Of a stretch of DNA of 64,000 bases, positions 3,894 through 21,815 are shown in pieces. Each line of letters opens with the position of its first letter. The stretch's first letter is position 1. The notes below the pieces were generated by a model. The model ran no database searches, had not been told where the DNA came from, and saw only the letters and a program-made list of their open reading frames with translations. The stretch is taken from contig CAVZMI010000021.1 in assembly GCA_963776275.1 (NCBI GenBank), positions 64,001-128,000 of the forward strand, read 5' to 3'. A program made the translations under genes and the position numbers. The DNA comes from Ignavibacteriota bacterium. Its GTDB lineage: Bacteria > Bacteroidota > Ignavibacteria > UBA10030 > CAVZMI01.

Positions 3894-5675
3894 TTATTTG
3901 CCTATGGTCTCCCATCCGCGTTTATTCATATCAAAATAAATAATTCCTCCGAATACAATACCCGAAACAAGAAATAACAAACCTGGCACAGTATCGCCGA
4001 GGACGATTTTCCCTACTCCGAACAGGAATGAATAAATCATTGCCACACCGCTAATCCAATCGATGAGATTGAAATATCCATCTTTTGCCGGTATAACGTC
4101 GGTTGCCTCTTTAGCAATGTCCCCCCAGAGCATGGGGCTTGGTCGCACCCTGCGATAGAATGAGAGCAATAACTCTTTCGGCTCCGGTCTTGTAAGAATT
4201 GTTACGGTGAGCCACACGATGGTTGTGATACTCATTGTAACAAGGACCAAATATGCGAATCCTAACGGATCCTGACTCGTCAGGCCGAACTTCCACTGAG
4301 CGATGAGCGAGGTAATGAACGCAGTCGCCATCGCTGAGACCTCACTCCATGCATTAATACGCCACCAGAACCAACGGAGAAGATAGACAAGTCCTGTTCC
4401 CGCTCCGAGTGCTATGAGAAAACTCCACGCACCTGCAATTGAATCCATAAAGTACGTTACGATCGCAGAGAAGACCATGAGAATCATGGTGCTTACCTGT
4501 GATGCGGACACGTAATGTTTTTCCGTTGCATTACGTACCAAAAAAGGTCGATAGAAATCGTTCACGAGGTAACTTGCACCCCAATTGAGTTGTGTCCCAA
4601 CGGTGGACATATATGCCGCAGCGAATGCCGCAAGCATTAATCCCCGAAGTGATGCAGGAAGGTCGGTAATAAGTATTCTGATATAGCCGGATTCCGGATC
4701 GGCAGCGAACGCAGCATCACCCTGAAAACGTGCCACTGCAACGAGAGCGACAATGATCCATGGCCATGGGCGGATAGCAAAATGTGCAATATTAAACCAG
4801 AGTGTAGCAAGGAGCGAATTTTTTTCATCCTTCGCACAGAAAATTCTTTGTGCGATATATCCGCCGCCTCCCGGTTCTGCTCCTGGGTACCAAGATGCCC
4901 ACCAGTTCACTGCCACATACACAATAAATGTAATCATCGGCATCCACGTCGAATTGAGATCGGGTATCAACGAGAGAATCGAACCTGTGCCGTTTCTGTG
5001 TGCATCGATTGCATGAATTTTTTCCAGAAGAGCATCCATTCCTCCTGTTGCCTGCACAGCAAAAACTGCCAGGACGATCACCATTCCCATTTTCAATACA
5101 AATTGAAAGAGGTCGGTCACCAACACGCCCCAGAGTCCGGAAAGTGTGGAAATTGAAGCTGTGATGAACATGATGACAAGGGCGATTAAGAGGGCTTCAA
5201 TTCGTGAAACGCCAAGGACGAGCATCATAATCCTGACGATTGCTAAATTCACCCATCCCAGAATAATAAGGTTTATGGGGAGTCCCAGATACAGCGCACG
5301 AAAACCCCGCAGGAAGCTGGCGGGTTTCCCGTGATAGCGGATTTGTGCAAACTCGACATCGGTCAGGACATGTGCCCGACGCCAGAGCCGCGCATAGAAA
5401 AACACTGTCATCATTCCGCTGAAGGCCATGCTCCACCAGAACCAGTTGCCGGCAATACCATTTCTGGCAACAAATCCGGTTACTGCCAGAGGTGTGTCAG
5501 CGGCGAATGTTGTCGCGACCATTGATGTCCCGGCCAACCACCATGAGACATTCCGACCCGAAACAAAGAAGTCACTGACACTCTTGGTCGCTCTTCTGCG
5601 ATAATACAACCCAATACCAAGGTTGAAAAGAAAATATAGAGCGATGATAATCCAGTCGATAAGGGCGAGTTGCGT
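3894..5675 (-). CDS. sodium:solute symporter (SSS/SLC5 family)
   Basis: DFFVSGRNVSWWLAGTSMVATTF, QRIFCAKD, AAYMST and many TM helices. The frame extends 22 codons upstream of the track start (xQLALIDWIIIALYFLFNLGIG) to an ACG at 5675 preceded by an AGGAGG SD. Confidence 0.9.
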   Translation of the reverse strand, partial: TQLALIDWIIIALYFLFNLGIGLYYRRRATKSVSDFFVSGRNVSWWLAGTSMVATTFAADTPLAVTGFVARNGIAGNWFWWSMAFSGMMTVFFYARLWRRAHVLTDVEFAQIRYHGKPASFLRGFRALYLGLPINLIILGWVNLAIVRIMMLVLGVSRIEALLIALVIMFITASISTLSGLWGVLVTDLFQFVLKMGMVIVLAVFAVQATGGMDALLEKIHAIDAHRNGTGSILSLIPDLNSTWMPMITFIVYVAVNWWASWYPGAEPGGGGYIAQRIFCAKDEKNSLLATLWFNIAHFAIRPWPWIIVALVAVARFQGDAAFAADPESGYIRILITDLPASLRGLMLAAFAAAYMSTVGTQLNWGASYLVNDFYRPFLVRNATEKHYVSASQVSTMILMVFSAIVTYFMDSIAGAWSFLIALGAGTGLVYLLRWFWWRINAWSEVSAMATAFITSLIAQWKFGLTSQDPLGFAYLVLVTMSITTIVWLTVTILTRPEPKELLLSFYRRVRPSPMLWGDIAKEATDVIPAKDGYFNLIDWISGVAMIYSFLFGVGKIVLGDTVPGLLFLVSGIVFGGIIYFDMNKRGWETIGK

Positions 5676-10276: not shown

Positions 10277-11053
10277 TTACCGCCGCTCACTATTTTGTCG
10301 CTGAATACTTTCTTTTGAAATGACAACATTTCTCACAACAGCCCGGTTTCTTCCGAGCGGTTCAAGAGTTGTACCATTCAGTGTGAAACGAATCCCTCCG
10401 GCATTTCCAAGCGTGACAGTAAATTTTTCTTTTGCTGTCCATGCGTACTTCGCTTTTGGAGGGAAGAGATATTCTTCGGTGCGTTTTCCGTCGATGATAA
10501 TACTCAACCAGACCGAATCACTAGTGCTTGAAATGAGGTGCAGGCTATCCTGGGTAGCCCGGGAAGCCGCCGTCTCGACGGGTTTGTGTAATACCTGTTG
10601 TGGAGTTGATATTCGTTCGGTTTCCTTCACTACATCATCAAATGCTATTTGACGCACCGGTTGAGAGTCTGATGAATGAACGAAAATATATATACCGATG
10701 AGCCCAAGTAGTACAAGTATGACCGCCGAGATAAGAATTTTCGTGGATCTCGGCCATTGTTGCGATACTGTGGGCCCTTCCTGTCGGTCCGGCTTCACCG
10801 GTTCGGGTGCAGGTTCAAGTCTCTTTCCAAGAAAGAGATCATATCGCTGGAGGGCTTCAACCGGATTCAGGCCGACGCTGATTGCATATTCTCTTATGAA
10901 TGCGCGAATATAGGTCTGCTGAAGCGTTTCAAAGTTTCCCTGTTCGAGAGCTTCAAGAAAGTGGATGTTGATACGGGTCATCAAGGCGATTTCATTCAGA
11001 CTGATCCCCTTGGTGACGCGTTGTTTCTGAAGTTCTTCAGCAAACCAGTTCAT
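10277..11053 (-). CDS. RodZ-like HTH membrane protein with C-terminal DUF4115-type domain
   Basis: N-terminal HTH (TRINIHFLEALEQG...YIRAFIREYA), single TM, C-terminal VWLSI...LGNAGGI...NG. Confidence 0.85.
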   Translation of the reverse strand: MNWFAEELQKQRVTKGISLNEIALMTRINIHFLEALEQGNFETLQQTYIRAFIREYAISVGLNPVEALQRYDLFLGKRLEPAPEPVKPDRQEGPTVSQQWPRSTKILISAVILVLLGLIGIYIFVHSSDSQPVRQIAFDDVVKETERISTPQQVLHKPVETAASRATQDSLHLISSTSDSVWLSIIIDGKRTEEYLFPPKAKYAWTAKEKFTVTLGNAGGIRFTLNGTTLEPLGRNRAVVRNVVISKESIQRQNSERR

Positions 11054-11081
11054 GTATAGGCTGAATTTTTCGTGAAGAAAA

Positions 11082-11120
11082 ACGCCAAAAGTATTTTATA
11101 TTCCCGGATACTTTTGGCGT
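11082..11120 (-). terminator. rho-independent terminator downstream of the tRNA-Pro locus
   Basis: 13-bp stem ACGCCAAAAGTAT/ATACTTTTGGCGT followed by a T-run on the minus strand. Confidence 0.7.
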
Positions 11121-11183
11121 CATAAATTCTGACTCTGAGACTTGCGTTTCTTCGAACACATTAATGCATTACAAAAAATATTG

Positions 11184-11263
11184 TCGGAACATCCCAACGT
11201 CGGGCAGGCGGGATTTCCTACCCGTTCATCAATGGCTCGGGATAATCCATGATCCTATTTTAA
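11184..11263 (-). repeat. degenerate tRNA-Pro 3'-half copy with two insertions
   Basis: + strand TCGGAAC[16 nt]GGCGGGATTT[~26 nt]..AATCCATGATCC versus tRNA TCGGAACGGCGGGATTTGAACCCGCGACCC. All mismatches in the last block are transitions. Confidence 0.65.
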
Positions 11264-11283
11264 TATTTCTCTGACCGGATCTA

Positions 11284-11321
11284 TCCGACGAAGTTTCGAC
11301 ATCAGTCGAAACGTAGTCGGA
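11284..11321. repeat. palindromic (REP-like) hairpin overlapping the 3' end of the tRNA half-copy
   Basis: TCCGAC-gaa-GTTTCGAC-atca-GTCGAAAC-gta-GTCGGA nested inverted repeat. Confidence 0.75.
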
Positions 11322-11397
11322 ACGGCGGGATTTTCCGCCGTAGGCGGATCCGCCTCACCGAACCATAATCCTTAGCGGAGAACCCGCGACCCATTGA
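11317..11397 (-). repeat. tRNA-Pro 3'-half copy with a 46-bp palindromic insertion in the T-loop
   Basis: Minus strand TCAAT GGGTC GCGGG TTC[46 nt, 11334-11379]AAAT CCCGC CGTTCCG A. Identical to the tRNA 3' half except TCAAT for TCAAG. Confidence 0.9.
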
Positions 11398-11425
11398 ATA
11401 TCATTTTGTATTATGAAACTTCTTG

Positions 11426-11499
11426 TCGGAACGGCGGGATTTGAACCCGCGACCCCTTGAACCCCATTCAAGTGCGCTACCGGGCTGCGCTACGTTCCG
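11426..11499 (-). tRNA. tRNA-Pro (anticodon GGG)
   Basis: CGGAACG TA GCGC AGCCCGGTA GCGC A CTTGA AT GGG GT TCAAG GGGTC GCGGG TTCAAAT CCCGC CGTTCCG A gives a full 74-nt cloverleaf. CCA is not encoded. Confidence 0.97.
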
Positions 11500-11500
11500 C

Positions 11501-11740
11501 TTAAATTAATTTTTCAATATACAATCGCTTTTTATGTTTCTTGATTTCTTTCTCTCGTTTCATTGCATCACTGCGATTCACGAAGTCTTCAGTGTACATT
11601 AACTTCTACGGTTGATCCGACTTTGTCGATTGAACCTGTCCGTTATTATGTCTCTGAAGTCTCCTTTCCAAATCGTTCGTTTGCCCTACATAATAATTTC
11701 CATTTTTTATACTTCGTAATATGTAGACAAAAAAAGACAT
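11501..11740 (-). pseudogene. small GIY-YIG nuclease (UPF0213/Slx1-like) with an in-frame TAG at codon 45
   Basis: Hand translation: MSFFVYILRSIKNGNYYVGQTNDLERRLQRHNNGQVQSTKSDQP*KLMYTEDFVNRSDAMKREKEIKKHKKRLYIEKLI. It has VY..YYVG, R, HN, STK and REKEIK motifs. The TAG (11606-11608) falls at the family's conserved PW tryptophan. Confidence 0.9.
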
Positions 11741-11742
11741 GT

Positions 11743-11840
11743 TCAATTGCGCTACCGGGTCCCGACCTGACGAAGTTAGGGCGCGGATTCTCGTCCCGTT
11801 CCGTTGTAGACGGAACGGGGCGGAACTGCGCTACGTTCCG
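11743..11840 (-). repeat. tRNA-Pro 5'-half copy with a 66-bp palindromic insertion in the D-loop
   Basis: Minus strand CGGAACG TA GCGC AG[66 nt, 11760-11825]CCCGGTA GCGC A ATTGA. Identical to the tRNA 5' half except ATTGA for CTTGA. Confidence 0.9.
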
Positions 11841-11852
11841 CTGAATATATCA

Positions 11853-12263
11853 TTACTGGAGTTTGACAAGCAATGACTCGAGGAATTCTTTCATCTCGAT
11901 GAGATCAGAATGAAGCTGTTCGTCTTTAACCGGACGTTTCTGTGGAGTGGAAAGGAGTTCAAGTTGTTCACCTTCATTTTCGTCATGATATGAAAGGAGA
12001 ACCTGTTTCGCTCCCTCGATCGTATATCGCTCTTCACGAAGCAGTTTCTTGATATACAGTATTAGTTTGATATCCCGATTCGTGTAGATGCGATTGCCGG
12101 CCCGATTTTTTGCCGGCTTCAACTGCTCGAACTCTGATTCCCAATACCGAAGGACATATTGTTCGAGATCGGTCAACTTGCTGACCTCACTGATCGAATA
12201 ATACAGCTTCTTAATCCCGAGCTGTTTCATAACGTTATCATCCGAATAATGATAATGGCTCAT
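11853..12263 (-). CDS. MerR-family transcriptional regulator (type typically upstream of tRNA-Pro GGG)
   Basis: KLYYSISEVSKL...YVLRYWESEF..LKPAKNRAGNRIY...YTIEGAK. Confidence 0.9.
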   Translation of the reverse strand: MSHYHYSDDNVMKQLGIKKLYYSISEVSKLTDLEQYVLRYWESEFEQLKPAKNRAGNRIYTNRDIKLILYIKKLLREERYTIEGAKQVLLSYHDENEGEQLELLSTPQKRPVKDEQLHSDLIEMKEFLESLLVKLQ

Positions 12264-12319
12264 AAAATATACATAAATCGATTTTGAGTTGCAAATAATG
12301 CAGGAAGCTATTAAAAAAG

Positions 12320-20079: not shown

Positions 20080-21815
20080 ATGGTTCACACATATGATATT
20101 GTTATCGTTGGAGCAGGCGGGGCCGGATTGCGTGCTGCGATTGAAACACCCCCCGGTGCAACCTGCGCGGTAATTACAAAAGTTTTTCCATCGCGCTCGC
20201 ATACGGGAACGGCACAAGGTGGCGTGTGTGCGGCATTAGCCAATGAAGAAGAAGATTCTTGGGAATGGCATATGTTCGATACAGTTAAGGGCGGTGACTA
20301 CCTTGGTGACCAGGATGCAATCGAGATTATGTGTCAGGATGCCATTCGTGCAATCATCGAACTCGAGCACATGGGGCTCCCCTTCTCGCGCACCCACGAT
20401 GGAAAAATAGCACAACGCCGTTTCGGCGGTCACACACGGGATTTCGGCAAAGCACCGGTGAAACGCGCGTGTTATTCTGCAGATCAGCCGGTCACGTCAT
20501 GCTGCAAACGCTGTTCGAGAATTGCATCCGCAACAGAGTAAATTTTTTTCCCGAATATTTGGTCACAGATCTTATTATCGATAAAAAAGGAATTTGCTGC
20601 GGTGTTGTTGCATACGACATCGCAACGGGTGAGATACATACATTCCACGCACGGGCGGTAATGTTTGCTACAGGCGGATACGGCCGCGCATATCGCATCA
20701 CCTCGAATGCAATGATCAGCACGGGAGACGGATTTGACATTATGTACGAACGGGGTATCCCGCTGGAAGACATGGAGTTCGTCCAATTCCATCCAACGGG
20801 TCTCTGGAAACTTGGTATTCTTGTTTCCGAGGCAGCCCGTGGTGAAGGTGGAATTCTCCTGAACAACAGGGGTGAAAGATTCATGGAACGATACGCTCCG
20901 ACGGTGAAAGACCTTGCACCACGCGACATGATCTCGCGTGCCATCATGACCGAAATCCGCGAAGGTCGCGGCTTTCAAGGAACTGATGGAACGTACTATA
21001 TCAATCTCGACGTTTCCCATCTCGGGAAAAAAGTCATCGATGAAAAAATCCCGGAGATTACAGGATTCGCCCGCACCTATCTTGGCGTCGAACCGACGAA
21101 AGAACCGATCCCGGTTCAGCCGACTACACATTATGCGATGGGAGGGATTCCCACAGATATCGACGGCCACGTATTGATCGATGCCAAAGGAAACAATATG
21201 CCTGGATTGTACTCTGCCGGCGAATGTGCCTGTGTCTCTGTTCATGGTGCGAATCGTCTGGGCACAAATTCGCTTCTCGACATTGTTGTTTTTGGCCGGC
21301 GGGGAGGAAAAGCGATTGCCGAGTATTTGAAGACAGCCGAATTCGTCCCGCTTCCAAAAAACGCGGAAGAAAAAAGCCGTGACCACATATCTACAATTCT
21401 CTGTAACGTAGGCAAGGAATCGGTTGCAACACTACGCACCAAGCTCCAGGAAACAATGATGGAGAATGTCGGCATCTTTAGGACGAAGGCTGGCATTAAA
21501 AAGGCCCTGAAGAAAATTGAAGAAATCAAGAGCCGGTACAAACATACCGCCATTGAAGATAAGGGAAAGACATTTAATACCGATCTGGTGGAAGCAATTG
21601 AACTGAAACATCTCATCGGGACTTCGGAAGCGATTGCCATTTCCGCCTTGAACCGCGAGGAAAGTCGTGGCGCCCACGCGTGTGAAGATTTTCCAAAACG
21701 CGACGACAAAAAATGGTTAAAGCACACTTTCCTCACACTAAAAGATGGAAAGACAAGGATCACCTATAAACCGGTAACGATTACACGATTCCAACCGCAA
21801 GAGAGAAAGTACTAA
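20080..21815 (+). CDS. sdhA: succinate dehydrogenase flavoprotein subunit (1-nt frameshift near 20486)
   Basis: [35 protein letters not shown]. Two track ORFs join at the expected ADRTGH motif. Confidence 0.95.

Follow-up and report, generated by a model that had tools for sequence, protein, structure and literature searches.

How does a tRNA gene come to lie in pieces around a nuclease gene and a second, unbroken gene for the same tRNA? This arrangement occurs on the minus strand of a stretch of Ignavibacteriota DNA, 64,000 nucleotides long, which in its whole length is called the window here. We have examined the locus itself, the loci of related nuclease genes in other genomes, and the known systems to which both may be compared. 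Features of the window are listed in Table 1.

Organization of the tRNA-Pro region

A search of the 64 kb with ARAGORN found a single tRNA, tRNA-Pro(GGG), at 11425-11499 on the minus strand. Its gene starts 1 nt past the TAA of a GIY-YIG gene, exactly as had been predicted from the sequence. Using blastn-short with the intact tRNA-Pro as query and the window as target, we located four further pieces on the minus strand, which cover 69 of the 74 positions of the tRNA (raw positions 1-33 and 39-74) and are co-linear, on the same strand and exactly abutting in tRNA coordinates. The matches are 17/17 for piece A together with two flank bases (11842-11826, E 2.4e-4), 17/18 for piece B (E 0.015), 18/19 for piece C (E 0.004) and 18/18 for piece D (E 6e-5), and the remaining matches of tRNA-Pro in the window are of 9-12 nt (E 0.24 to 15). 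Piece A is also found in repeat family D5 (95% over 20 nt). The lone mismatch in piece B is compensated in piece C; apart from these two bases, which pair with each other in the anticodon stem (A:T in the outer copy versus C:G in the inner), the outer pieces are identical to the inner copy. Thus, the outer pieces derive from one foldable tRNA.

The outer copy is broken in the D loop by a 66-nt insert, in the anticodon loop by 343 nt (11741-11399) and in the T loop by a 46-nt insert. The anticodon-loop insert consists of the GIY-YIG gene and the working tRNA, with almost nothing else. The four pieces therefore confirm the central claim of the original prediction, that a split tRNA-Pro brackets a nuclease gene and an intact tRNA.

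Table 1. Features of the tRNA-Pro region of the window, in the order in which the minus strand is read
Feature	Position	Strand	Remarks
MerR-family regulator gene	11853..12263	-	Pfam MerR_1, E 5.8e-19
Outer piece A	11826..11840	-	Acceptor 5' strand, D-stem 5' strand, D-loop start (raw 1-15)
D-loop insert, 66 nt	11760..11825	-	Two adjacent hairpins (11825-11788, 11787-11760), the second degenerate
Outer piece B	11742..11759	-	Remaining D arm, anticodon-stem 5' strand (ATTGA), first loop base (raw 16-33)
GIY-YIG nuclease pseudogene	11501..11740	-	79 codons + TAA; Pfam PF01541
Intact tRNA-Pro(GGG)	11426..11499	-	ARAGORN; Rfam tRNA 64.1 bits, full length
Spacer, 3' flank of inner tRNA	11399..11425	-	Resembles flank at 11183-11165
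Outer piece C	11380..11398	-	Last anticodon-loop base, anticodon-stem 3' strand (TCAAT), variable loop, T-stem 5' strand, T-loop start (raw 39-57)
T-loop insert, 46 nt	11334..11379	-	Two hairpins (11379-11349; 11348-11334 = TCCGCC-tac-GGCGGA)
Outer piece D	11316..11333	-	Remaining T loop, T-stem 3' strand, acceptor 3' strand (raw 58-74 + 1)
Hairpin TCCGAC..GTCGGA	11284..11321	-	5' arm starts in acceptor 3' end of outer copy
Older tRNA remnants	11165..11216	-	Degenerate T-arm/acceptor 3' piece (11216-11199), then 11190-11165

The MerR-family gene ends 12 nt before the outer pseudo-tRNA, in a locus of the order merR, tRNA-Pro, rodZ-like gene. At the other side, the second degenerate 3' half that had been noticed earlier is present as two older remnants. 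The first (11216-11199) is 83% identical to the 3' part of the tRNA (repeat family D2), and the second (11190-11165) comprises the last 8 tRNA bases, flank and a T run, at 77% identity to 11407-11432 (repeat family D4); blastn-short gives a 10/10 tRNA match at 11190-11181, and a terminator-like site lies at 11198-11183. A scan of 22 ORFs from 1.6 to 21.8 kb found no integrase or transposase, which bears out the earlier statement that none is present, and no gene of RAYT or IS200/IS605 type.

The GIY-YIG gene

The gene within the anticodon loop belongs to the GIY-YIG superfamily: it scores 66.8 bits with Pfam PF01541 against a cut-off of 22.6 (E 2.1e-18; domain at residues 3-72), and in an alignment with 11 homologs there is no variation at Y6, Y17, G19, H31 and E63 and hardly any at R27. 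Codon 45 is an in-frame TAG (11608-11606), at a place where nine of the 11 homologs have Trp and two have Phe. With this nonsense codon and its degenerate hairpins (see below), the element in the window is probably dead.

When a profile of the window protein and its 11 homologs was compared with solved structures, the top matches were 1zg2 (BH0048; 5.8e-14) and 1ywl (EF2693; 3.1e-11), followed by SLX1, and in sequence the protein resembles the minimal nucleases of the UPF0213/Slx1 type. The two UPF0213 structures have the same minimal domain and carry no function or genomic context, and the profile similarity to UPF0213 members is clear; the protein may belong to UPF0213 or to cd10448. Assignment to the homing endonucleases of Seg/I-TevI type was tried and rejected, the protein having 79 residues and the homing-type NCBIfam model TIGR01453 giving 30 bits, over residues 4-41 only, against a cut-off of 56.05.

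Related loci in other genomes

At E<=1e-10 the protein family has 8,239 representative members. We sampled the best 79 loci of 563 confirmed relatives; they include neither the window's own genome nor any close relative of it, the best identity being 61%. A tRNA lies on the same strand within 300 nt of the gene at 71 of these best 79 of 563 loci, a rate that describes the loci closest to a tRNA-adjacent protein and does not extend to GIY-YIG/Ssn proteins as a whole. It is upstream in 52, downstream in 18 and overlapping in one, and two loci with complete flanks (L006 and L052) have no tRNA called nearby. There are 82 tRNAs per 44.4 kb near the gene versus 27 per 452 kb farther out; 80 of the 82 are co-oriented with the gene, and the gap between gene and tRNA is 0-70 nt at most loci. 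The commonest layout, with the tRNA upstream, is a full tRNA, the gene and a hairpin-bearing pseudo-tRNA. The bracket of 5' and 3' halves is present in the window, as had been claimed, but it is one layout only.

At 59 of the 73 loci that have a neighbour tRNA, the locus contains extra pieces of that tRNA, 133 fragments in all, whereas a control with foreign tRNAs gave 0 of 73. An enrichment of tRNA halves beside GIY-YIG homologs is what the original prediction had made its own check, and these counts reject the view of the locus as a one-off decayed duplication. They also leave a minimal tRNA-associated selfish element, one of the readings first offered, as the best reading. The arrangement occurs on 14 tRNA amino-acid types, and in isolate genomes (for example L016, L028, L045, L059 and L065) as well as in MAGs, so that mis-assembly is unlikely.

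Several further features recur. The ORF ends with TAG in 43 of the best 79 of 563 loci, and its stop often falls within a tRNA or pseudo-tRNA, at positions 8-10 or 20-22. Tandem gene copies exist at 20 of the same 79 loci, one of which (L040) has six identical copies, and tandem pseudo-tRNA arrays without genes are found at three (L024, L058 and L079). Repetition of the downstream flank past the pseudo-tRNA is recognized in only 11 of 26 testable loci. Peptides of the T arm occur in 14 of 59 N-extended protein predictions, versus a mean of 1.19 in shuffles.

On the nuclease tree the tRNA amino-acid label changes 26 times, versus 42-52 times in 500 shuffles, and the layout label seven times, versus 12-19; the tree is based on 79 columns and 38 of its 76 inner branches are unresolved. 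Its Asn clade includes three phyla. Because related rows share labels, the small numbers of changes do not prove horizontal transfer.

Hairpins in the window and its relatives

Pairs of hairpins form the D-loop and T-loop inserts of the outer copy, which the original prediction had not described. As DNA, the D-loop insert folds at -16.5 kcal/mol (z -2.47; 4 of 200 shuffles equally good), and inserts of the same double-hairpin kind exist in the D loops of L035 (z -8.2) and L038 (z -5.7). The T-loop insert, at -9.5 kcal/mol, is weak by itself (z -1.5); hairpins stand at the equivalent place in the pseudo-tRNAs of L041, L042, L046 and L076. The hairpin at 11284-11321 (inverted repeat I4) folds at -12.7 kcal/mol (z -4.84; 1 of 200 shuffles equally good). 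A fourth candidate, 11260-11217, was rejected, its fold being no better than those of shuffles (z +0.19). The hairpins of the window are variants of TCCG..CGGA, two of them weak (z -1.5 and z +0.19). The exact TCCCG..CGGGA palindrome is missing from the locus, and elsewhere in the window there are three matches versus 1.85 expected by chance; thus, the window copy has degenerate variants only.

Among the relatives, 110 TCCCG..CGGGA palindromes lie within 500 nt of the gene (1.53/kb) versus 22 farther away (0.052/kb), an enrichment of about 30-fold. Of the 110, 65 directly adjoin fragments of tRNA, at the edges of the anticodon arm. The sequence of the stem differs between protein clades, and the loops are not conserved among loci. 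Pairing in the palindromes is almost purely Watson-Crick and without strand bias (593 Watson-Crick and 8 G-U pairs versus 599 and 4), which points to hairpins acting as DNA and not as RNA. Rfam searches found only tRNA and chance-level matches in the window (10900-12300, E<=10), and only tRNA and rRNA at 20 related loci (gathering threshold).

Comparison with known systems

The gene-plus-hairpin layout resembles that of the Ssn nucleases, a likeness that was likewise absent from the original prediction. SsnA of Neisseria is a single-domain GIY-YIG protein of 94 aa that binds a hairpin in single-stranded DNA and cuts just upstream of it; the hairpin, NTS, has the core TTCCCGCG..GCGGGAA, and its authors compared the NTS-ssnA-NTS layout to insertion sequences (PMC11893778, Nat Commun 2025). 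The Ssn family of that paper (CDD cd10448) consists of nucleases that cut single-stranded DNA at specific sites and have hairpin repeats termed NTS/SRM; its members cleave single-stranded DNA only, beside their hairpin, and are assigned by cd10448 or by tblastn (E<1e-10) to N. meningitidis SsnA (PMC11893778).

In common with the Ssn nucleases, the loci described here have a small single-domain GIY-YIG protein, which at 79 aa in the window is within the Ssn limit of <150 aa, and a gene flanked by short hairpin-forming inverted repeats, concentrated near the gene, whose sequence varies with the protein lineage. The cores are similar as well, TCCCGNN..NNCGGGA in these loci versus the NTS core given above. 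However, the present hairpins are without the conserved HGTC leader of Ssn hairpins: the Ssn-related motif HGTCWYN(0-2)YYVSBRHN(0-5)WNVSBRGN(0-2)RNCYNB has no match in the window and none within 500 nt of the gene in the best 79 of 563 loci, where a single match lies farther off. Unlike Ssn hairpins they are inside tRNA-derived sequence, mostly at anticodon-arm borders, and as far as seen they are local to the gene, whereas Ssn repeats number hundreds per genome. The word 'tRNA' is absent from the main text of the Ssn paper (PMC11893778). Its Supplementary Data 4 gives, for Cyclobacterium xiamenense, two Flavobacterium species and Ignavibacterium album, no tblastn homolog of SsnA, only a lenient cd10448 match and SRM counts at chance, and for the species of L059 and related genera no CDD score >100 (PMC11893778).

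GIY-YIG genes beside tRNA genes are otherwise familiar from phages. The tRNA-region endonuclease genes of T5 are lodged among tRNA genes. So is the GIY-YIG gene of T4 SegB, whose spread is attributed to recombination via conserved tRNA sequence (PMC2330249). The Seg proteins are several times longer than the bare 79-aa domain of the window and have DNA-binding domains; they are phage and not chromosomal genes, described with neither hairpins nor tRNA half-copies. In the available text of the superfamily survey by Dunin-Horkawicz et al. (2006), tRNA appears only for a TrmH fusion and in the references (PMC1564403). Full-text searches of literature that included few subscription journals found no paper describing small GIY-YIG genes within bacterial tRNA genes.

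A comparison with REP/BIME-RAYT and IS200/IS605 elements is made in the Ssn paper (PMC11893778, section 12). In these, too, a small nuclease gene is flanked by cognate palindromes that form hairpins in single-stranded DNA, and the repeats amplify locally, as here; the enzyme fold, however, is HUH/Y1 and not GIY-YIG. We know of no embedding in tRNA for either group.

Interrupted or partly duplicated tRNA genes also result from integrase att duplications, from archaeal multi-intron or split tRNAs and from group I introns in the anticodon loops of bacterial tRNAs. In archaeal tRNAs the D, anticodon and T loops can all hold inserts. The inserts of the window are either palindromic DNA or the nuclease gene with an entire tRNA, and the interrupted copy is dispensable because an intact tRNA adjoins it. 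A group I intron in the anticodon loop was rejected, Rfam giving no ribozyme at E<=10 over 10900-12300.

Explanations for the locus

On balance, we think it likely that a selfish nuclease-hairpin module, which recurs and lives in bacterial tRNA genes, has left a decayed copy at this locus. Other explanations must be weighed against this. One is a device working in RNA, in which co-transcribed tRNA-like pieces and hairpins, through RNase P and RNase Z sites and protective stems, process or stabilise the mRNA of a leaderless or poorly expressed nuclease whose gene rides on a strong tRNA promoter. Such a device would suit the co-orientation of nearby tRNAs with the gene, the gap of 0-70 nt, and the ORFs that end within a tRNA or pseudo-tRNA, where tRNA 5' processing and translation must interact; in the window, moreover, a sigma-70 scan found no site between merR and the outer copy (sites upstream of merR and on the plus strand are overall at chance level). 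However, the palindromes have no sense-strand G-U excess (8 versus 4) and their loops are not conserved, no Rfam family beyond tRNA and rRNA appears in 20 loci, and neither the gene-less pseudo-tRNA arrays nor the tracking of protein clade by stem sequence is explained. The earlier suggestion that tRNA mimics delimit and process the nuclease mRNA is therefore unsupported as the main explanation, the hairpins being without strand bias. We regard the RNA-level device as unlikely, and it may be true in addition to the selfish module.

In classical homing, genomes without the element would have their double-stranded tRNA gene cut by the nuclease, and double-strand-break repair would copy in the nuclease gene together with a replacement tRNA, as with the free-standing Seg enzymes encoded in tRNA clusters of phages; the hairpins would then be scars of repair, or changes conferring immunity at the cut site. 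The window layout (5' half, gene and working tRNA, 3' half) is its expected product, and the compensatory pair marks the outer copy as a different allele, which is what a resident tRNA unlike the incoming one would leave. T4 SegB is located in a tRNA cluster and is reported to cut a tRNA gene (PMC2330249), and the window protein has a weak T5orf172 match (E 4.2e-6). But that protein is a bare catalytic domain with no DNA-binding module, well under the cut-off of the group I intron endonuclease model; the adjoining intact tRNA would stay a target; and the hairpins share lineage-specific sequence across unrelated tRNAs, unlike random repair scars. A phage collection gave just 10 matches, weak and partial (40-42% identity, 71% cover) and confined to Rhizobium phages, and homing of this kind seems to us quite improbable. 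We give hardly any credence to the remnant of an integrase-mediated island, or to a chance duplication of tRNA-Pro that received an unrelated small gene. Duplications of tRNA 3' ends are the usual mark of integrase att sites, and the window has three successive 3' remnants, but the scanned ORFs contain no integrase or transposase, the duplication extends to 5' as well as 3' pieces, and the gene family shows the same fragments at 59 of 73 loci and on 14 tRNA amino-acid types.

The selfish module that we favour would have three parts: (i) a gene for a single GIY-YIG domain of about 80 residues, its 3' end abutting or overlapping tRNA-like sequence; (ii) short and nearly perfect palindromes in DNA, with a stem sequence that differs from one nuclease lineage to another; and (iii) partial copies of the host tRNA, with palindromes in or replacing the D loop, anticodon arm or T loop. 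One intact tRNA, here tRNA-Pro(GGG), would always be retained, so that the host loses nothing. By analogy with the Ssn nucleases, the protein may bind its cognate hairpin in single-stranded DNA and nick nearby, and the tRNA-derived arms may be the homologous stretches through which it recombines with the resident tRNA gene. Crossing over in the 3' arm would then yield tRNA-gene-pseudo-tRNA and in the 5' arm pseudo-tRNA-gene-tRNA; arrays could result from repeated events or unequal exchange. In the window, the gene and the working tRNA lie within the anticodon loop of an older tRNA-Pro copy. This anatomy recurs over many tRNA types and phyla, is amplified in tandem and clusters on the nuclease tree by tRNA type; from that distribution we infer that the element is mobile.

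A wider proposal is more tentative, and we put it forward as a possibility that could well prove wrong: the loci may represent an undescribed class of mobile elements, in at least 17 phyla, for which tRNA genes serve as the landing site and also as homology arms that can be carried along. A GIY-YIG nuclease without further domains would recognise its own palindrome in single-stranded DNA, the palindrome being planted in a copy of the host tRNA, where it replaces the anticodon arm or sits in the D or T loop. Nicking at the palindrome would lead to recombination with the intact tRNA gene. There would follow tRNA-specific lineages that cross phyla, pseudo-tRNA arrays, and ORFs that use the universal U8-A9-G10 of the tRNA as their stop. 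If the hairpin plus tRNA arm acts as a DNA guide, these loci would be a natural DNA-guided system against tRNA genes.

Implications

Taken alone, the window has a modest practical message, namely that its nuclease gene is a pseudogene and its working tRNA-Pro is intact. If the selfish-module reading is true, a minimal parasite, with about 240 nt of coding sequence plus palindromes, would be hosted in the tRNA genes of many bacteria, including candidate-phyla lineages with tiny genomes. It would account for stray tRNA halves and for pseudo-tRNAs called as odd tRNAs at these loci, and likewise for contigs that end beside the gene and for database proteins with tRNA-derived N-termini. Lineage-specific nuclease-hairpin pairs would be in supply for single-stranded DNA tools. 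Ssn-type single-stranded DNA nucleases would gain a concrete genomic target, and a single-strand nuclease directed by hairpins could be tested for a link with recombination at genes that are highly transcribed.

The tRNA-Pro locus in the window

The only tRNA gene that ARAGORN recognizes in the window is an intact tRNA-Pro(GGG) (Rfam, 64.1 bits). Using it as a short-word BLAST query against the whole window, we recovered four additional same-strand pieces of tRNA-Pro, which abut in tRNA coordinates without overlap or loss and together cover raw positions 1–33 and 39–74. The outer copy is therefore a single tRNA with three interruptions, enclosing the intact inner copy. Of the 69 positions that the outer and inner copies share, only two differ, and these are partners in one anticodon-stem pair (C:G in the inner copy, A:T in the outer). 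This pattern is like that of two alleles of a working tRNA, and the compensatory difference indicates that the outer pieces derive from one once-functional gene and not from unrelated scraps. Folded as DNA, the D-loop and T-loop inserts each form two adjoining hairpins (z −2.5 and −1.5, respectively), and a fifth hairpin (z −4.8) begins in the acceptor 3' end of the outer copy. Downstream follow two further 3' remnants in a more advanced state of decay, together with a repeat of the tRNA 3' flank. The structure described in the original prediction was correct in every point checked.

The anticodon-loop insert contains a GIY-YIG ORF of 79 codons (Pfam E 2.1e-18), whose TAA stop codon ends 1 nt short of the intact tRNA-Pro. 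Codon 45 is TAG, in a column occupied by Trp in nine of 11 homologs and by Phe in the other two, so that the gene as it stands is a pseudogene. This substitution at a conserved Trp codon suggests decay of the element, and the degenerate hairpins are an independent sign of it. Of the 22 ORFs scanned (1.6–21.8 kb of the window), none was identified as an integrase or transposase, and the genes nearby are of the housekeeping kind: ligA, acpS, a HAD hydrolase, aroQ, sdh genes, a MerR regulator and a RodZ-like protein.

Three further features of the region were recorded. The tRNA region probably terminates at a perfect inverted repeat of 13 bp (13-nt loop, followed by a T run) located ahead of the rodZ-like gene, past the tRNA remnants; its long loop let it escape a simple terminator scan. 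The succinate dehydrogenase/fumarate reductase flavoprotein gene is split into two overlapping ORFs, which is a frameshift or a sequencing error, and isolated sequence errors may thus occur in the window. Upstream of merR, a 208-amino-acid ORF with a signal-peptide-like start followed by Cys is rich in Ser, Gly and Thr and has no Pfam match.

Coordinates of features in the window and in related loci (L numbers)
Feature	Position	Strand	Remark
Intact tRNA-Pro(GGG), inner copy	11499–11426	−	
Outer tRNA-Pro piece	11842–11826	−	17/17 identical
Outer tRNA-Pro piece	11759–11742	−	17/18 identical
Outer tRNA-Pro piece	11398–11380	−	18/19 identical
Outer tRNA-Pro piece	11333–11316	−	18/18 identical
D-loop insert of outer copy	11825–11760	−	66 nt
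Anticodon-loop insert of outer copy	11741–11399	−	343 nt; 5 nt including anticodon replaced
T-loop insert of outer copy	11379–11334	−	46 nt
GIY-YIG ORF	11740–11501	−	
Decayed 3' remnants and flank copy	11216–11165		
Inverted repeat	11082–11120	−	
ORF of 208 amino acids	12383–13009	−	
Split flavoprotein gene	20080–21815	+	
First flavoprotein ORF	20080–20541	+	FAD_binding_2 positions 1–131
Second flavoprotein ORF	20331–21815	+	FAD_binding_2 positions 140–414 and C-terminal domain
Pseudo-tRNA called as gene	L048:4226–4301		
Pseudo-tRNA called as gene	L027:2526–2601		
Pseudo-tRNAs called as genes	L028:4245–4309, 4617–4681		
Six gene copies	L040:3943–6407		412-nt period
Gene-less array	L024:3668–3994		
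Gene-less array	L058:3508–3844		
Gene-less array	L079:3653–3932		
Gene-less array	L045:3066–3597		
Module in rRNA operon	L023:2223–8237		

Recurrence among relatives

The read-through window protein was aligned with 11 database homologs, and a collection of species-representative genomes was scanned with this alignment. At least 563 relatives were confirmed, and the best 79 loci (L001–L079), to which all locus counts in this text refer, were analyzed; none of the 79 comes from the window's own genome, and the highest identity to the window protein among them is 61%. A same-strand tRNA (ARAGORN) lies within 300 nt of the gene in 71 of the 79 loci; it precedes the gene in 52 of them, follows it, as in the window, in 18, and overlaps it in one. 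Among the eight exceptions, L040, L045 and L057 are arrays in which other units stand between copy and tRNA, in L020, L054 and L064 the contig breaks off within 107 nt on the upstream side, and L006 and L052 have no ARAGORN call nearby. The density of tRNAs within 300 nt of the gene is 1.85/kb, compared with 0.06/kb in the remaining fetched DNA, and 80 of these 82 tRNAs are co-oriented with the gene. Extra fragments of the locus's own neighbor tRNA (E ≤ 1e-3; 133 in total) occur in 59 of the 73 loci that have a neighbor tRNA, whereas a control tRNA, drawn from a different locus and specific for a different amino acid, yielded fragments in none of the 73. The neighbor tRNAs represent 14 amino acids, and the hosts 17 named phyla, most commonly Bacteroidota; Ignavibacteriota, Thermodesulfobacteriota, Myxococcota, Fidelibacterota, Nitrospirota, Spirochaetota, Chloroflexota, Pseudomonadota and several candidate-phyla groups are also included.

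The original prediction had allowed for a mis-assembly, or for a one-off decayed duplication recognizable by a lack of tRNA pieces beside homologous genes. The enrichment of such pieces instead establishes a recurrent structure, and its presence in isolates as well as MAGs excludes an assembly artefact. Nuclease gene, lineage-specific palindromes and host-tRNA copies make up one recurrent tRNA-embedded unit, of which the window locus is very probably a member.

Anatomy of the family

In the common layout, a full tRNA is followed by a spacer, the gene and a pseudo-tRNA, that is, a partial, hairpin-bearing tRNA copy. In the second, that of the window, a pseudo-tRNA or 5' part precedes the gene and a full tRNA follows, sometimes with a 3' remnant; this bracket is clear in L023, L035 and L060, and weak in L001. 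The D arm of the pseudo-tRNAs and their segment from variable loop to 3' end are usually identical to the neighbor tRNA, and a near-perfect palindrome, typically of 16–18 nt with the consensus TCCCG..CGGGA, replaces the 17-nt anticodon arm. T-loop palindromes exist in some pseudo-tRNAs (L041, L042, L046 and L076), and D-loop palindrome pairs in L035, L038, L068 and L030, likewise in the window.

Within 500 nt of the gene we counted 110 palindromes (1.53/kb), compared with 22 in the other 425 kb (0.052/kb). Of the 110, 65 directly adjoin a tRNA fragment at the anticodon-arm borders. Their stems comprise 593 Watson–Crick and eight G–U pairs on the sense strand and 599 and four on the opposite strand; pairing that is almost purely Watson–Crick on both strands favors a feature of the DNA over an RNA structure. 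The stem shifts with the protein clade: a Flavobacterium clade has TCCCGC, a Flavobacteriaceae clade of window-type layout TCACGC, a candidate-phyla clade GTCCGAT, the Asp-linked Desulfobacterota clade TCCCGTC, and the Asn-linked clade TCCCGAC or TCCCGAA. Judged from sequence, this is the behavior of a protein and its putative cognate site.

The nuclease ORF is physically merged with tRNA-like sequence. It stops at TAG in 43 of the 79 loci, and often within a tRNA or pseudo-tRNA, at positions 8–10 (U8-A9-G10, universal in tRNA) or in the D loop at 20–22. In L001, L023, L051, L055, L056, L063, L065, L073 and other tRNA-downstream loci the ORF enters the functional tRNA and ends at the TAG of positions 8–10 or of the D loop, so that coding sequence and tRNA gene overlap.

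Tandem gene copies occur in 20 of the 79 loci. L059 has four, and L040 has six that are 100% identical, each preceded by the same 39-nt palindrome, in a series ending at tRNA-Pro(CGG). In L024, L058, L079 and L045, gene-less arrays of two to five pseudo-tRNA units, each a tRNA 5' part plus palindrome, lie directly upstream of a real tRNA. In 27 of the 79 loci the contig terminates within 1 kb of the gene, as is expected for repeated DNA. Many types of tRNA host the unit, which multiplies in tandem and in every case spares one intact tRNA. In L023, a Gracilibacteria-type MAG, the module is situated in the 16S–23S interval of an rRNA operon, in the order pseudo-tRNA, gene, tRNA-Ala(TGC), pseudo-tRNA, second gene copy (87% identical) and tRNA-Ile.

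Some hairpin-bearing pseudo-tRNAs are called as genes by tRNA finders (L048, L027 and L028); ARAGORN reports a 'tRNA-Ser(TGA)' and a tRNA with a 4-base anticodon, and two pass Rfam at 35–38 bits. Miscalls of this kind could swell or skew tRNA inventories.

Breadth and phylogeny

Searching 1.84 billion representative proteins with the family profile gave 29,478 matches at E ≤ 1e-3 and 8,239 at E ≤ 1e-10. Among the best 150, 59 have at least 15 residues preceding the domain, and a peptide translated from the T arm is present in 14 of these 59 extensions, compared with a mean of 1.19 and a maximum of four in shuffles. Several extensions are plainly translated tRNA, and the tRNA association thus reaches beyond the 79 loci. 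Database proteins of the family (P0013, P0035, P0051, P0069, P0074, P0079 and others) often have an N-terminal extension translated from the upstream tRNA, containing for instance ..AQLGER.. or ..GFES..; the start codons of such proteins are probably mis-set.

A quick maximum-likelihood tree was built from the 79 proteins plus that of the window (79 columns; 38 of 76 inner branches unresolved). Two labels were set by hand: L027 to Ala, because its odd ARAGORN call equals the neighboring tRNA-Ala, and L048 to Pro, tRNA-upstream, because its 'Ser(TGA)' call is a hairpin pseudo-tRNA. Neighbor-tRNA amino acid requires 26 changes on the tree (42–52 in 500 label shuffles), layout seven (12–19) and host phylum 25 (28–31), although few changes are no proof of transfer, since related rows share labels. 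Nuclease lineages follow tRNA type at least as well as host; the Asn-linked clade unites Spirochaetota, Thermodesulfobacteriota and Nitrospirota. The tree places the window protein, with weak support (86), beside L001 and further loci that share its layout.

Relation to known nucleases

The nearest solved structures by profile are the UPF0213 proteins BH0048 (1zg2, 5.8e-14) and EF2693 (1ywl), followed by SLX1. A superfamily survey of 2006 describes standalone Slx1-like domains as the minimal form and, in its available text, does not tie them to tRNA genes (PMC1564403). The closest functional precedent is the Ssn family of site-specific single-stranded DNA nucleases. SsnA of N. meningitidis, a 94-amino-acid single-domain GIY-YIG protein, binds the NTS hairpin repeat (CGTCATTCCCGCGMAVGCGGGAATCYRG) solely when the DNA is single-stranded, and its cut falls a few nucleotides upstream; most homologs are flanked by related hairpins with which their specificities co-vary, and the authors likened NTS-ssnA-NTS to insertion sequences and REP/RAYT (PMC11893778). 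The hairpin core TCCCGNN..NNCGGGA of the tRNA-embedded family resembles the NTS core, but the degenerate SRM motif of that paper occurs in none of the best 79 loci, nor in the window. The paper's genome table gives no SsnA tblastn homolog, only a lenient cd10448 match and SRM counts at chance, for Cyclobacterium xiamenense (the species of L059), two Flavobacterium species and Ignavibacterium album. With this motif mismatch and these table entries, the tRNA-embedded clade is at best a poorly captured fringe of the Ssn family. The word 'tRNA' is absent from the paper's main text, and tRNA embedding of the nuclease is not described in its available parts.

Full-text literature, in a coverage that excludes most subscription journals, contained no other account of bacterial tRNA genes with small GIY-YIG genes embedded in them. 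Seg-type endonucleases in phage tRNA clusters are a looser analogue (PMC2330249). Enzymes of the Seg type are long and have several domains, and the window protein scores under the cut-off of a homing-type NCBIfam model.

Proposed mechanism and alternatives

The selfish element put forward in the original prediction gains from the fragment enrichment and can be sharpened to a nuclease–hairpin module akin to Ssn/NTS. A selfish module of this kind in tRNA genes is, overall, the reading that we consider reasonably probable. The tRNA mimics might instead act at the RNA level, as also proposed originally. Strict co-orientation of gene and tRNA fits that idea, but the palindrome statistics and the gene-less arrays do not, and we regard it as unlikely, although an RNA-level role may exist in addition to the selfish module. 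Classical double-strand homing would account for the bracket in the window; the bare catalytic domain and clade-specific palindromes make it decidedly improbable. Integrase scars or chance duplication scarcely deserve credence, being ruled out by recurrence across the relatives' loci.

For the selfish module we tentatively propose a single-stranded nick followed by homologous recombination. By analogy with SsnA, the nuclease would recognize its own palindrome as a hairpin in single-stranded DNA and nick beside it, hence inside tRNA-derived sequence. Genes for tRNA are heavily transcribed, and form cloverleaves if single-stranded. Either this freed end or a single-stranded copy of the unit, circular or incoming, would then recombine with the resident tRNA gene via the tRNA-identical arms. 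Crossover in the 3' arm would give tRNA–gene–pseudo-tRNA and in the 5' arm pseudo-tRNA–gene–tRNA, so that both layouts and the arrays would result. The same flank follows both tRNA and pseudo-tRNA in 11 of 26 testable loci (random controls, 0 of 26), which fits repeated local events; the other 15, without flank repeat, fit a single entry. In the window, an older tRNA-Pro allele would have taken the gene and a working tRNA into its anticodon loop, and hairpins into its D and T loops; later, a stop codon would have arisen in the gene and the hairpins decayed.

Since tRNA sequences are conserved far past species borders, their arms would serve as portable homology, which would explain the tRNA-specific nuclease lineages. 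Furthermore, because the ORF ends at or inside a tRNA, RNase P cutting of the co-transcript would remove or abut the nuclease stop codon, and nuclease production may therefore be coupled inversely to tRNA processing.
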